The notes: generated by a model from the letters alone, not told the origin. A stretch of 64,000 nt of DNA from Candidatus Binataceae bacterium (GCA_036489375.1 DASXFX010000116.1:23364-87363); one strand, 5' to 3'. Shown: positions 6,440 through 10,885, numbered from the stretch's first letter. Numbers and translations: made by a program.

Positions 6440-9400
6440 CTAGCCCTTGGCGTGGCCGCCCGAACGGCGAGTGCGAGGGCGTTCACTTGGCGGCGAATCG
6501 GCGTTAGTTTCGCCTTCGATCAAGAGCGTTGTTGCTGGAAGCGGCGGCGGGATCGCTTGAGTGATAGCCTCGATGCGCGACGCCTGCGGGCTCCTTTGCA
6601 CCATGGCCAAAACCGCGTGGCGAATGCGGTCCGCCAGCTTCCGATACGCTCCAGCACCCTCAGCGTCCCGCGCGACGAGGCGCAGTTCGTCACTCGTTAT
6701 CGCGCGCCCGATTCTGACTTCGACGGCTCCGTGCCGCGGCAGAAGCTTGCCCTTCCCGAGCACCTCGAAGGTGCCGCTGAGATGAATCGGGAGCACGTCG
6801 CAACCCGCATGCAATGCAAGATATCCGACACCGCTCTTGAACTCGTGAATCGATCCGTCCGGCGAGCGAGTACCCTCGGGAAACATCAATACGTTGCGTC
6901 CCGCGGCGAGCTCCGTCAGCGCCTGTTCGAGGGAATCGAGCTGCGCGCGTTCGCGATCGAACGGAATCAGCCGGGTGAAGTTAGTTGCGGCAAATCGACG
7001 CAGCGCGGTGTTGAAAAAATAATCCTTCGCCGCCAGCACCACCAGGTCGCGGCCATTTACGCCGAGCGCGTGAGCGACCAGACCGAAGTCGAGATGGCTT
7101 GCGTGATTCGCGACGACGATAAAATTGCGGTTCGCTGGAATGTTACCGCGCCCCATTACCCGTGGCTTTAGCCACGAGTCGAAGGCCGTCGCGAGCGTCT
7201 TGCGCATCGCGAATTCGCCGAGTCGCCGGATCGGCGCCGGCAACTCCATCGTGTAGGGCTGCGCGAAACGAGCGTACGACGGCAATTTGGGCCGATTCTG
7301 CCCCTCGCTCACGATACGTTGCAGGTCTTCGACGGTCGCGACGTTTGCGAGTTCCTCGGCACTGATGTCGCGCCCGGCTTTGATCGTGATCTGTTCGGCG
7401 AGCTCTGCCAGCGCGAGCGAATCTAGTCCTAAATCCTCGATCAGCCGCGTCGCTGGATTGATATTCGCAGCGCCACTTGCCACCTGCTCGAGCGCTTCGG
7501 CCAGCCACGACTCAACCTCAGTGTTGATCGCGGTCTTCTCCGCGCTGCGGCTTTCCACCATCCGATACAGTGTCGACGCGACTTCGGCGCGCTTGACCTT
7601 GCGCGTTCGTGTCCGCGGTAGCTCGGTGTCGGCGAAGCGCAGGATCCGAATACGGTTGTGAGGATTGAGCGTTGCGCTGACACGCTCGAAATGCGTTCGT
7701 AGCTGGTCTTCGACCGCGCGCCGGCTTTCGCCTTTCGCATAGGCCGGTATCGCGAGCGCCGCGACTTGCTCGCCCAGCCCGACCTTCAACCCCACTACGG
7801 CGAGTTCGCGCAGATACGGTGAGTGTCCGTAGGCCTCTTCAAGCTCGTCGATGTAAATGTTATTACCGCCCGCATCGACGATGACGTCCTTGGCGCGTCC
7901 AACGATATACAGTCGCCCTTCGCTATCGAAACGGCCCAGGTCCCCCGTATGCAGCCAGCCGTCCTTCAGTACCTCGTCGGTGACCGCCTGATTGCGGAAA
8001 TAACCGCTCATCACGTTGGGGCCGCGCGCGATGATTTCGCCGACTTGATCGATCTGATGATCGTGCGGTTCACCTCGGTGATGCGGAGGTTGACCGTCGG
8101 CGCCCGCAAGTCTCAGCTCCACCTTGGAAAGCGGTTTGCCGACCGAACCCGGCCGCAGCGGCTCGTCCGGACGCGCGACGCTCAGCACCGGAGCCGACTC
8201 CGTGAGGCCGTAGCCCTCGAGCAGCTTAATGCCGATGTCGTTAAAAAATTGCGCGACCCGCTGAGGCAGCGCTGCGCCCCCGCTCACGGCCAGCTTGAGC
8301 CGTCCGCCGAGTGCTGCGTGCGCCGGGCGGAATAGCATCGTTCCCAGGTTCAGCCGATAGTCGGCGTCGATCCTGCGATTCAGGTCGCGTAACTGGTCGA
8401 AAGCGGCTTGGAAGAAAGGCCCGCGCGCCTCAACGGTATCGATGATGCGGCGATGAATCGCCTCCCACAACGCGGGCACGCCGACCAGCGCGGTCGGTTG
8501 CACGTCGGCGAGCGTGCGCGACAGGCTCGCTGCATCAACCCCGAGCGGATAAACGATCTGCGCACCGCCCGCGAGCGGTAACATCAGCCCGCAAGTGAAT
8601 TCGAAGGTGTGATGAAGCGGCAGCAGCGAGAGCACGACGTCGTCGGCACCGAGCGCAAAGACTCGCCCGAGCGACGCGATCTGCGCCGTGAAATTCCCGT
8701 GCGACAGCATTACCCCTTTAGGCGTGCCGGTCGTCCCTGAAGTAAACACTATCGACGCCAGCGTGCGGCGTTCAATCTTGACCGGGGCGGCCGGTTGGCC
8801 GCGCAACATAAAGGGTCGCTGCAGGTCGCCGAGCTCCATCTCGACGATGCCGCTCATCGCCTCACCCACCGACTTGCCCAGGCGCTTCGAGCAGGCCGCC
8901 GAGGTCAGCGCCGCGCGCGGTTCAGCAATTCGCGACACCGCCGCCAATTCGTCCGGCGATATGAGATGGTCGAGCGGCACCGCGACCGCACCCGCATACA
9001 GGATTGCGAAATAGGCAATTACCCAGTCGGGCGAGTTCTCGGCGATCAACAACACCCGATCGCCCGGCTTGATCCCGCGCGTGCCGAGGAGCAGTCCCGC
9101 GCGTTGTGCGCGGTCATGCAGTTCGCGATAGCTGATCGAGGTTCGCTGGCCCGACGGCGTACGCGAATCGAGCGCCGGACGCGCGCCATAGCGCTCCGCC
9201 GCCCGGTCAAGCATTTCGACCAGGGTCTTATATCTATATGAGCTACCTGGGCGGGCGCGTGTATGCAGTTCGAGTTGCGGGAAAATGTGCCGGCGCAGTC
9301 CCGGCATATGCACATTCAGCCAATAGTCATTCCAGTCGATGCGCTCGGGATGATACGGATGACGATCGGCGTCGCCTGGTGCGAGCGCTGCGTAAAGGTC

Positions 9401-10885
9401 GCGGATATTCTTTCCGTGAAAGGTGTAAACGAGGTCCTGGATGTACGGCCGATATACTTCCGCGAGGGACCGCACCATCACCGCGCTCTTGCAGATCTTG
9501 TCAACTTGCCGCTCGAATTTGCGCGCCGGCGCGGAATCCTCGCCCATCAAGGTGCGCGCGAGAACCGCCGTCTGCTTGAGCATTGCGGGAATCTGGTTGC
9601 TCACCAACTCGTAGGTATTCTGCGAGACCACGGTTGCGTCCAGATGCGGCGCGAGCTTGCCCATCGGCCCGCCGTGCAACCGATGTTCACGCCGATTCGA
9701 TAGACCCGTCAACTCGACTAGCCGGCGCATCGGAAAAGGATTTACGTCCGAAGTACAGAGCTGGTAGACCTGCTTGTGACGCTTCAACAGAAGCGCCGCG
9801 AGCACCGGAACTATCGCGTGCGCGGCCAGATCGACCGGTATGACATCCAATACCAACGCACCCGTCGCCGGAACAAAGCGGAAGCCGCGCCCAGTCAGGT
9901 AGGTGAGCGGCGCGCTCGTGTTTACCCCCTGGTTCCAACCGGGCATCGGATCGCCGAGCGAACTCTCGATGACCGAAGGGCGCACGACCGTTGCAGTTAT
10001 TTCGTTGTGCGCGGCAAATACTAACTGCTCGCCGAGACTCTTGGTGTAGCTATAGGTATTCGGCCATCCCCAGTTCTGCGCGCGCTCCTTCCCGATCTGT
10101 TTGAAACGATCTTCGAGCCACTGTTTGCGCCGCGATTCGACCGCACGATCGCTATGGTCACCGCTGCTGCCCTCGCCGTGCTCCCCATCGGCAGCGGCGC
10201 GAAACTCGGACTGGCGCGCATGGTCATGGGATTCCGCCTCGACTCGATCGAGGGCTGTCAGCGTATCGCGAATCTCGCGCTGCAGATTGAAGTCGCGTCG
10301 CCCGTTGGGGCACCAGTCGGTCGGAAAGTCGTCTTCGAAGCGTTGGCCGTCCGCGATCCCCGCGACATAGCAGGTCGAAACGTGCACCAGCGAGGCGCCG
10401 TGGGTGCGGCAGAATTCGATTACATTGGCGACCCCGGTGGTATTGATCGCGATCGCCTTTTCCAGCGACGCCTCGAAATTCACCAACCCCGCGCAGTGGA
10501 TGACCGCGTCAATCGGATCGAAATCGAGGCTCGCGTCGCTGCCAATCAGACCAGGCTCGCTGATATCGCCCGGCACTACCGTGACCCGCTCCTCCACGTG
10601 CCGATCGAACTGCGATCCCAGATGTTCACGCACCGGACTGAGCGCCGGCGAATCGAGAATCTCGTTGCGAAACCGCTGCAGGCTGGAGCGCTGGTCGCCA
10701 CGAATTAAAAGCAGGATTTTTCCAATTTCGGGATGCCGGCGCAGCAGGATCGACAGCAGTACCTTGCCGAGGAAGCCGGTGCCCCCCGTAATCAGGATGC
10801 GGCGATTTCGCAGCACCTCTTCAAGCGGCGGCAGCGTCATCGCGCCCGTTGCTTTGCGTGTGCGCACGCCGTTCTTATTGGGCAT
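6440..10885 (-). CDS. Multidomain lipid enzyme: fatty-acyl reductase (SDR-e) / acyl-AMP ligase / acyl carrier domain / 1-acyl-glycerol-3-phosphate acyltransferase (ElbD-like)
   Basis: Reductase: 'ILITGGTGFLGK' and 'YSYTKSLGE' (YxxxK). Ligase: 'IVFTSGTTGTPKGVMLSHGNF', 'EGYGLTESAP', 'GWLHTGDLGRFDSEGRLYIVGRAKDVI'. Carrier: 'LGLDSLALAEL'. Acyltransferase: 'VANHASHLD' (HX4D) and 'FPEGTRSPDG'. Approximate domain spans on the + coordinate: acyltransferase 6685-7183, carrier 7300-7528, ligase 7585-9223, reductase 9685-10804. Confidence 0.85.
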   Translation of the reverse strand: MPNKNGVRTRKATGAMTLPPLEEVLRNRRILITGGTGFLGKVLLSILLRRHPEIGKILLLIRGDQRSSLQRFRNEILDSPALSPVREHLGSQFDRHVEERVTVVPGDISEPGLIGSDASLDFDPIDAVIHCAGLVNFEASLEKAIAINTTGVANVIEFCRTHGASLVHVSTCYVAGIADGQRFEDDFPTDWCPNGRRDFNLQREIRDTLTALDRVEAESHDHARQSEFRAAADGEHGEGSSGDHSDRAVESRRKQWLEDRFKQIGKERAQNWGWPNTYSYTKSLGEQLVFAAHNEITATVVRPSVIESSLGDPMPGWNQGVNTSAPLTYLTGRGFRFVPATGALVLDVIPVDLAAHAIVPVLAALLLKRHKQVYQLCTSDVNPFPMRRLVELTGLSNRREHRLHGGPMGKLAPHLDATVVSQNTYELVSNQIPAMLKQTAVLARTLMGEDSAPARKFERQVDKICKSAVMVRSLAEVYRPYIQDLVYTFHGKNIRDLYAALAPGDADRHPYHPERIDWNDYWLNVHMPGLRRHIFPQLELHTRARPGSSYRYKTLVEMLDRAAERYGARPALDSRTPSGQRTSISYRELHDRAQRAGLLLGTRGIKPGDRVLLIAENSPDWVIAYFAILYAGAVAVPLDHLISPDELAAVSRIAEPRAALTSAACSKRLGKSVGEAMSGIVEMELGDLQRPFMLRGQPAAPVKIERRTLASIVFTSGTTGTPKGVMLSHGNFTAQIASLGRVFALGADDVVLSLLPLHHTFEFTCGLMLPLAGGAQIVYPLGVDAASLSRTLADVQPTALVGVPALWEAIHRRIIDTVEARGPFFQAAFDQLRDLNRRIDADYRLNLGTMLFRPAHAALGGRLKLAVSGGAALPQRVAQFFNDIGIKLLEGYGLTESAPVLSVARPDEPLRPGSVGKPLSKVELRLAGADGQPPHHRGEPHDHQIDQVGEIIARGPNVMSGYFRNQAVTDEVLKDGWLHTGDLGRFDSEGRLYIVGRAKDVIVDAGGNNIYIDELEEAYGHSPYLRELAVVGLKVGLGEQVAALAIPAYAKGESRRAVEDQLRTHFERVSATLNPHNRIRILRFADTELPRTRTRKVKRAEVASTLYRMVESRSAEKTAINTEVESWLAEALEQVASGAANINPATRLIEDLGLDSLALAELAEQITIKAGRDISAEELANVATVEDLQRIVSEGQNRPKLPSYARFAQPYTMELPAPIRRLGEFAMRKTLATAFDSWLKPRVMGRGNIPANRNFIVVANHASHLDFGLVAHALGVNGRDLVVLAAKDYFFNTALRRFAATNFTRLIPFDRERAQLDSLEQALTELAAGRNVLMFPEGTRSPDGSIHEFKSGVGYLALHAGCDVLPIHLSGTFEVLGKGKLLPRHGAVEVRIGRAITSDELRLVARDAEGAGAYRKLADRIRHAVLAMVQRSPQASRIEAITQAIPPPLPATTLLIEGETNADSPPSERPRTRRSGGHAKG

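Follow-up and report, generated by a model that had tools for sequence, protein, structure and literature searches.

Why should one bacterial polypeptide carry a reductase, an acyl-adenylating enzyme, an acyl carrier, and a glycerolipid acyltransferase? The question is raised by an open reading frame (ORF) at positions 6440..10885 of a 64,000-nucleotide stretch of DNA from a Candidatus Binataceae bacterium (GCA_036489375.1, DASXFX010000116.1:23364-87363; hereafter, the window). We consider it highly probable that this ORF encodes the orthologue, in Binataceae, of ElbD, a multifunctional enzyme that acts in the aerobic pathway (elb) to bacterial ether lipids. The argument begins with the protein itself, continues with its relatives and the rival functions that they suggest, and then turns to the gene directly upstream, elbC, which encodes a LarA homologue. 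Window positions are counted from its first letter, and all of the genes and domains located in it below are on the minus strand.

Four domains on one chain

The ORF runs from an ATG at 10885 to a stop codon at 6440-6442 and encodes 1481 amino acids (aa) with no internal stops. An initial, sequence-only reading had described reductase, adenylase, carrier, and acyltransferase domains in that order from the N to the C terminus, and Pfam coordinates confirmed the arrangement. The FAR-type domain (FAR, fatty acyl-CoA reductase; 9281..10792) comprises a match to NAD_binding_4, the “male sterility” FAR-type family (9812-10792, residues 32-358; E value, 3e-51), and a below-cut-off match to Sterile/FAR_C (9281-9502, residues 462-535) in a region that is covered by the alignment with PDB 7eoz. 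That solved fatty acyl-CoA reductase aligns end to end with residues 22-535 (E value, 2e-48), and the domain contains the motifs TGGTGFLG (residues 33-40) and YSYTK (278-282) as well as S170, Y278, and K282. The acyl-adenylate-forming domain, of the acyl-CoA synthetase (ACS) type (7598..9211), combines AMP-binding (7997-9211, residues 559-963; E value, 1e-83) and AMP-binding_C (7598-7846, residues 1014-1096) matches. Core motifs A3, A5, A7, A8, and A10 (K1096) are present, with TSGTTGTPKG at residues 715-724, GYGLTE at 891-896, GWLHTGD at 976-982, and GRAKD at 996-1000, and the best solved relatives of this domain are fatty acyl-CoA synthetases.

The carrier (PP-binding) domain (7322..7507, residues 1127-1188) has its phosphopantetheine attachment site at Ser1156 (codon TCG, 7418-7420), within the motif LGLDSLA (1152-1158). 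It is followed by a PlsC/AGPAT-type Acyltransferase domain (6779..7162, residues 1242-1369; E value, 2e-24) with an H1261-x4-D1266 motif in the sequence HASHLD (1261-1266) and FPEGTR at 1335-1340. Thermotoga PlsC (TmPlsC, PDB 5kym) aligns with this domain through both catalytic motifs (E value, 1e-17), and the TIGR00530 AGP_acyltrn model scores 67 bits, below its cut-off. Every motif quoted in the sequence-only reading was located in the translation at the expected place, and the comparison with stand-alone enzymes that it had proposed paired the reductase with a FAR, the adenylase with fatty acyl-CoA synthetases, and the acyltransferase with PlsC. The chain ends in a low-complexity tail that is not conserved. 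A scan for promoters and terminators gave nothing exceeding shuffled expectation.

An exhaustive homologue search with residues 1-1195 recovered full-length relatives in dozens of 50%-identity clusters, 1350-1700 aa in length and 29-46% identical to the query. We aligned 34 diverse full-length homologues (29-64% identity) to assess residue conservation. Invariant in all 34 were the Rossmann residues G34, G37, and F38 and the short-chain dehydrogenase/reductase (SDR) residues S170, T171, Y278, and K282 of the reductase; G717, G891, Y892, G893, T895, E896, T980, G981, D982, G996, and R997 of the adenylase; Ser1156 of the carrier; and H1261, S1263, H1264, D1266, P1336, E1337, G1338, and R1340 of the acyltransferase. 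As judged from this alignment, such invariance goes far past chance. The carrier serine and the reductase tyrosine and lysine, singled out earlier as residues whose conservation should be checked, are thus among those kept throughout, and the degeneration that could have undone a four-domain interpretation is not seen: the catalytic and cofactor residues of all four domains are intact and conserved.

The same interpretation would fail if the ORF were an assembly chimera, or a pseudogene fusing unrelated genes. The source genome is a 3.97-Mb draft in 230 contigs, 93.5% complete, and apart from that draft state we found no supporting evidence for such an origin. Against it, a 95%-identical homologue, also of 1481 aa, and more than 100 further full-length homologues come from independent sources, and the close homologues that carry a name are all “Candidatus Binataceae bacterium.” Contigs from other, independent assemblies (296 kb, 123 kb, and 11 kb) also have the intact gene, in the same operon and wider neighborhood, and the GC content across the gene is even (0.60 to 0.65). 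A sample of the order pointed the same way: the gene was present in 113 of 121 genomes, nearly always as a single intact frame of ~1450-1480 aa. The probability that the fusion is an artifact appears negligible.

The gene is single copy in the source genome, which has no FAR-type domain besides the one in this protein. Its single-copy state and its presence in 113 of the 121 genomes, representing 28 of the 29 genera in the order, therefore indicate long-term selection on the gene. In a 201-genome sample of the phylum, outside the order, the full-length form occurred only in the source genome's own genus. Reductase-less adenylase-carrier-acyltransferase relatives (~880-1016 aa, 32-35% identity) were found in five genomes from other orders of the phylum (G023, G051, G064, G154, and G162), where they replace full-length ElbD.

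Relationship to ElbD and the rival functions

Myxococcus xanthus ElbD is described as having a FAR1-like domain at its N terminus and, after it, ACS, acyl carrier protein (ACP), and AGPAT-like acyltransferase domains (PMC9131029, a review), and deletion of elbD abolishes alkyl and vinyl ether lipids in that organism (PMC9131029, PMC13012113). The sequence-only reading had named ElbD as having this set of activities and had left the domain order in doubt; the published order is the same. The accompanying idea, that one carrier might serve both the reductase and the acyltransferase, agrees with what has been proposed for ElbD. The M. xanthus protein (MXAN_1528, of the elbABCDE cluster catalogued as MIBiG BGC0000871) was compared by its published description, and the sequences that we aligned were myxobacterial orthologues in an elbBCDE context, from two Polyangiaceae loci (L018 and L023) and one Myxococcales locus (L020).

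Among the matches listed in a pattern scan of species-representative genomes, full-length relatives belong to Polyangiaceae, Myxococcales, Pyrinomonadaceae (Acidobacteria subdivision 4), and other groups. Identity to the myxobacterial and acidobacterial ElbD proteins is collinear along the chain, at 35-38% in the reductase, 41-43% in the adenylase, 31-38% in the carrier, and 41-47% in the acyltransferase. In a FastTree phylogeny of 47 sequences, rooted on the reductase-less relatives, the Binataceae proteins form a long, deep branch of their own within a clade of support 100, to which the Myxococcota and Pyrinomonadaceae proteins belong as well. The nearest representative from outside the Binataceae, at 46% identity, comes from a Myxococcota metagenome-assembled genome (MAG). 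Each ElbD feature that we examined in the protein sequence was found, and the only one lacking, linkage to elbE, is a property of the operon, not of ElbD as a protein. The family is thus a known one; its occurrence in Binataceae is unreported in the literature that we searched, in which no paper deals with elbD or ether lipids in Binatota or Binatia, and the operon is a lineage-specific variant.

Gene order adds to this picture. An elbB-like HAD-IB phosphatase gene (12544..13338), syntenic in other phyla, overlaps the start of the elbC-position gene (10923..12563) by 20 nt, and the latter ends 37 nt before elbD. The order HAD phosphatase, Lar_N protein, ElbD is common to five loci from Polyangiaceae, Myxococcales, and Pyrinomonadaceae. 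This conserved order, together with the clustering of the full four-domain form with myxobacterial elbBCDE-type proteins and the loss of alkyl and vinyl ether lipids on deletion of M. xanthus elbD, counts against a role in acyl recycling or neutral-lipid metabolism with no ether lipids involved. Under such a role, exogenous (for example, alkane-derived) fatty acids would be esterified to lysophospholipids in the manner of Aas, and the role of the reductase would be limited to detoxifying aldehydes or providing the fatty alcohol of wax esters. Several observations lend themselves to that explanation: models of Aas-type acyl-ACP-phospholipid acyltransferases also match the acyltransferase domain, adenylase-carrier-acyltransferase relatives that lack the FAR domain are common and occur in other orders of the phylum too, and members of the Binatota are predicted alkane degraders (PMC8262859). 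Pontiella, moreover, possesses elbD homologues, and ether lipids were not detected in it (PMC11868695). No wax-ester synthase gene lies within the operon, and we regard acyl recycling, with either use of the reductase, as unlikely.

A different departure from bulk lipid synthesis would make the protein a nonribosomal peptide synthetase (NRPS)-like enzyme of secondary metabolism, whose product would be not a bulk constituent of the membrane but a specialized lipid for signaling or defense, such as an alkylglycerol derivative or a fatty aldehyde. The elb cluster is indeed catalogued as a biosynthetic gene cluster (BGC0000871), the reductase also matches the thioester-reductase domains of NRPS and carboxylic acid reductase (CAR) enzymes, and a TetR regulator heads the operon. 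The near-universal, single-copy occurrence in 28 of 29 genera is, however, typical of core metabolism and would be unusual for an accessory cluster; the housekeeping-gene neighborhood is conserved, and phospholipid head-group genes lie within the operon. A secondary-metabolite function is in our judgment very improbable, and the assignment to ElbD of the ether-lipid pathway is the one that we carry forward.

A probable nickel-pincer nucleotide partner and the proposed pathway

The product of the gene in the elbC position is a 546-aa single-histidine LarA homologue that matches Pfam Lar_N (E value, 1e-34) and scores 832 bits, against a cut-off of 740, with NCBIfam NF052592 (nickel-pincer nucleotide [NPN]-dependent hydroxyacid isomerase, LarAH14/15/16 family). 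In an alignment with Lactiplantibacillus LarA (5huq), ElbC H144 corresponds to H108, the first catalytic histidine; K219 corresponds to K184, the lysine that tethers NPN; and H235 corresponds to H200, the nickel-ligand histidine. Racemization by LarA needs two catalytic histidines (H108 and H174), and ElbC differs in lacking the second, having Asn210 at the H174 position in a loop without any histidine. H144, K219, Asn210, and H235 are invariant in seven ElbC orthologues from Binataceae, Myxococcota, and Acidobacteriota, whose identity (52-58%) exceeds that of ElbD (38-39%). From these residues, ElbC is predicted to depend on NPN. The genes for NPN biosynthesis are present in the source genome above cut-offs (LarB, 291 bits; LarE, 321 bits; and LarC, split at contig ends), and the elbC-position gene is its sole Lar_N gene.

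The distribution of ElbC follows that of ElbD closely. Within the order sample, ElbC adjoins ElbD in 112 of the 113 ElbD-positive genomes, the exception being a contig-end fragment, and it is missing from exactly the eight genomes that lack ElbD. A sample of 121 Myxococcota genomes gave ElbC in all 39 that were ElbD positive, mostly adjacent, and in none of the 82 that were ElbD negative. Combined, the two samples place ElbC in 151 of 152 ElbD-positive genomes and in 0 of 90 ElbD-negative genomes. LarC was detected in 113 of the 121 genomes of the order, including five of the eight without ElbC and ElbD, a pattern that is nondiscriminating given MAG incompleteness. Because the NPN residues are kept, because ElbC is the only LarA-family protein beside LarB, LarC, and LarE, and because its linkage to ElbD is near absolute, we think it probable that ElbC and ElbD are functional partners.

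Among the relatives of ElbC, the closest solved structures are those of LarABw and LarASp (PDB 9q3j, 9q2u, and 9q3k; E value, 1e-28), the two single-histidine LarA homologues that have been found to bind NPN covalently, their function being unknown (PMC12611868). Frankia LarAH14 was inactive on all 2-hydroxyacids tried (PMC7583248), and an intermolecular hydride transferase that depends on NPMN and has sugars as substrates provides an example of chemistry beyond racemization (PMC13524815). No paper in the literature that we searched ties LarA homologues to lipids. We tentatively suggest, as a possibility that we rate well below even, that ElbC may be an NPN enzyme performing the ether-forming or hemiacetal-reducing step of the aerobic elb pathway. 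In that capacity it may apply stored-hydride (“borrowing hydrogen”) chemistry to the fatty aldehyde or alcohol from the ElbD reductase and a glycerol-phosphate acceptor.

The domain content of ElbD and the genes around it are consistent with the following model. The adenylase domain would activate a free long-chain fatty acid with ATP, and the phosphopantetheine arm on Ser1156 of the carrier would receive the acyl group in thioester linkage; both fatty-acid activation and carrier loading have been confirmed in vitro for M. xanthus ElbD (PMC9131029, a review). From the carrier, two fates are envisaged. The FAR-type reductase, with NAD(P)H, would convert the bound chain to a fatty aldehyde or alcohol, the future sn-1 alkyl chain, and the elbD-dependent i15:0 aldehyde of M. 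xanthus (PMC9131029) fits this branch. The PlsC-type domain would acylate the glycerol-phosphate backbone with another chain bound to the carrier. As its acceptor we favor the sn-2 position of a putative 1-O-alkyl-glycerol-3-phosphate over GNPAT-like acylation of dihydroxyacetone phosphate (DHAP), because the best matches of the domain are 1-acyl-glycerol-3-phosphate acyltransferases and because a phosphatidate-type intermediate is required by the CDP-alcohol transferase encoded downstream. Formation of the ether bond is hypothesized to require more than ElbD, with the HAD phosphatase (ElbB) and the LarA homologue (ElbC) as obligate partners. The product would then pass to the head-group enzymes of the operon, the phosphatidylcholine-synthase (Pcs)-like protein and the phosphatases, a route that predicts ether-linked choline phospholipids in Binataceae. 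No match to CarF/PEDS1 (PF10520) was seen in the source genome, which would point to alkyl rather than vinyl ether lipids; the search had no positive control, the control genomes were equally silent, and it is therefore uninformative.

A number of points weigh against this model and against the assignment on which it is built. For no ElbD, that of M. xanthus included, has either the reductase or the acyltransferase activity been demonstrated in vitro (PMC9131029), and the Pontiella result cited above shows that elbD homologues can be present in an organism in which ether lipids are not detected (PMC11868695). Our case for orthology to the type protein is built on its description in the literature and on the myxobacterial orthologues, not on the M. 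xanthus sequence. Binataceae are uncultured, and their ether lipids are a prediction from genes; the main Binatota genome paper mentions no ether lipids, plasmalogens, or phosphatidylcholine. A search of the source genome with two ElbE proteins recovered no elbE orthologue, and elbE is reportedly needed in M. xanthus. Finally, elbD by itself gave partial rescue of an M. xanthus elbB insertion that was considered polar (PMC9131029), and ElbB and ElbC would therefore be helpful but not strictly essential.

For the protein family, the advance is incremental: full-length ElbD is extended to the Binataceae, an abundant uncultured soil lineage, as a near-universal core gene. Its near-universal presence predicts ether-linked membrane lipids in this lineage, possibly with choline head groups, and bears on how environmental ether lipids are attributed to their producers. 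The larger value may lie in ElbC. The elb pathway does without AGPS, and its route to the ether linkage is unsettled (PMC9131029); the strict linkage of ElbC to ElbD across two phyla, its intact NPN-binding residues, and its position as the sole LarA-family protein make it a concrete and experimentally approachable candidate for aerobic bacterial ether-bond formation. If ElbC does act in ether formation, it would supply the first physiological role for the uncharacterized single-histidine LarA homologues, bacterial ether-lipid synthesis would be nickel dependent, and ElbB, ElbC, and ElbD, without ElbE, would constitute a minimal ether-lipid core.

Operon variants and comparison with known systems

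The Binataceae operon opens with a gene for a TetR-family regulator (13340..13999; likely start at 13999, 219 aa) that stops 1 nt before elbB. The longest frame for this gene, of 314 aa (13340-14284), is over-extended; the corresponding genes of relatives encode 216-217 aa and so point to a start at about 13999. As a possible TetR operator, an imperfect palindrome (14169-14199) was considered and then dropped, because it was not found in the relatives' loci. Downstream of elbD, after 24 nt, lies a gene for a zinc-phospholipase C (PLC)- or S1-P1-nuclease-like protein with a hydrophobic N terminus (5558..6415), followed by a dual-specificity, protein tyrosine phosphatase (PTP)-type phosphatase gene (4894..5421) that is kept after elbD in Binataceae loci. 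Next comes the gene for the Pcs-like CDP-alcohol phosphatidyltransferase (4141..4866), which scores 139-201 bits with five NCBIfam Pcs models and reaches the cut-off (300-440) of none. Its sequence contains the motif DGx2ARx12Gx3Dx3D, the 12-residue spacing of which we take to be specific to Pcs. The last gene of the operon (2326..4134) encodes a functionally uncharacterized protein of 602 aa, matched only weakly by DUF7064, and the gene beyond it is convergent.

In the loci examined, these downstream genes are confined to Binataceae. The phosphatase, Pcs-like, and 602-aa genes are kept in Binataceae loci whose ElbD proteins are 68-83% identical to that of the window, and the PLC-like gene is present in a close relative (L098) and absent from two more distant ones (L099 and L100). 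None of the four was seen beside ElbD in the non-Binataceae loci examined. In L098, the 83%-identical Binataceae assembly, the Lar_N (8304-9943) and Pcs-like (16028-16713) genes are each in two pieces, probably through frameshifts, and elbD is intact.

Other lineages have their own arrangements. ElbE, an NAD-dependent epimerase of ~400 aa, is encoded by the gene after ElbD in the loci examined from Polyangiaceae and Pyrinomonadaceae. A Pyrinomonadaceae variant has a prolyl oligopeptidase gene between elbB and elbC and a diacylglycerol (DAG)-kinase gene downstream. An Acidobacteriota locus belonging to another ElbD clade has elbB after elbD, with no elbC seen, and in Nannocystis punicea elbB lies directly 5' of the reductase part. 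Operon variants outside the Binataceae occupy L019 5000-7420, L021 14337-14984, and L062 7082-9374.

An epimerase on contig C43 of the source genome, 33-36% identical to ElbE, was set aside as an ElbE candidate. It is HpnA-like and part of a hopanoid cluster, as indicated by its place after Shc, Dxr, and HpnC/HpnD/HpnE-type genes. The region (C43 16000-26000; L097 219-8467) encodes Shc, Dxr, two SQS_PSY proteins, an amine-oxidase-type protein, the HpnA-like epimerase, and a carotenoid-synthesis-family protein.

The closest known system is the M. xanthus operon, which consists of elbA (NAD epimerase), elbB (HAD), elbC (unknown), elbD, and elbE (NAD epimerase) (PMC9131029; locus tags in PMC13012113). 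The two ElbD proteins agree in domain content and domain order, and elbB and elbC precede elbD in both operons. In contrast, the Binataceae operon lacks elbE and elbA, neither of which is recognizable in the source genome, and adds the upstream TetR gene and the four downstream genes. Many members of the ElbD clade are 1500-1700 aa long. The Polyangiaceae protein (1555 aa; L023 14350-14677) has an additional C-terminal domain of ~110 aa with a weak match to SCP2 lipid-transfer proteins (E value, 0.001, just below cut-off), an extension that is not found on the Binataceae protein.

Split elbD variants, in which the reductase is separate from an adenylase-ACP-acyltransferase protein, have been reported in Poribacteria and Acidobacteria. 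The FAR-less ElbD-like proteins (~850-1000 aa) of other orders of the phylum, and of many phyla, have homologous adenylase, carrier, and acyltransferase domains; they differ in having no reductase on the chain and hence no supply of reduced alkyl chains of their own, and their link to ether lipids is unproven. Escherichia coli Aas (2-acyl-GPE acyltransferase/acyl-ACP synthetase) likewise joins an adenylate-forming enzyme to a PlsC-type acyltransferase and re-esterifies fatty acids via an ACP thioester, and NCBIfam Aas models match both corresponding parts of the Binataceae protein, with scores far under the Aas cut-offs. In Aas, however, the acyltransferase precedes the adenylase, and there is neither a built-in carrier nor a reductase. 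CAR enzymes and the terminal reductases of NRPSs share the logic of adenylation, carrier thioester formation, and NAD(P)H-dependent thioester reduction, and their models match weakly. The CAR order is adenylase, peptidyl carrier protein (PCP), reductase, with no acyltransferase, whereas the Binataceae reductase is N terminal and of the FAR type, with a FAR C-terminal domain.

ElbC can be placed in the same way. Like LarABw and LarASp (LarAH groups 14, 15, and 17), it keeps the NPN-tethering lysine and the nickel-ligand histidine and has lost the second catalytic histidine. Those proteins differ in being enzymes of gut Firmicutes with a tentative link to carbohydrate metabolism, whereas ElbC is tied to ElbD in lipid operons.

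A further parallel to the Binataceae protein is FARAT, a FAR-GNPAT fusion known from M. xanthus (MXAN_1675) and Tetrahymena thermophila (PMC13012113). Here too an N-terminal FAR-type reductase is fused to a glycerolipid acyltransferase, and the fusion supplies precursors of ether lipids (PMC13012113). FARAT has no adenylase or carrier, takes acyl-CoA, and works with the flavoenzyme AGPS. In the Binataceae protein, an adenylase-carrier module stands between the reductase and the acyltransferase, an arrangement from which a self-loaded substrate is predicted.

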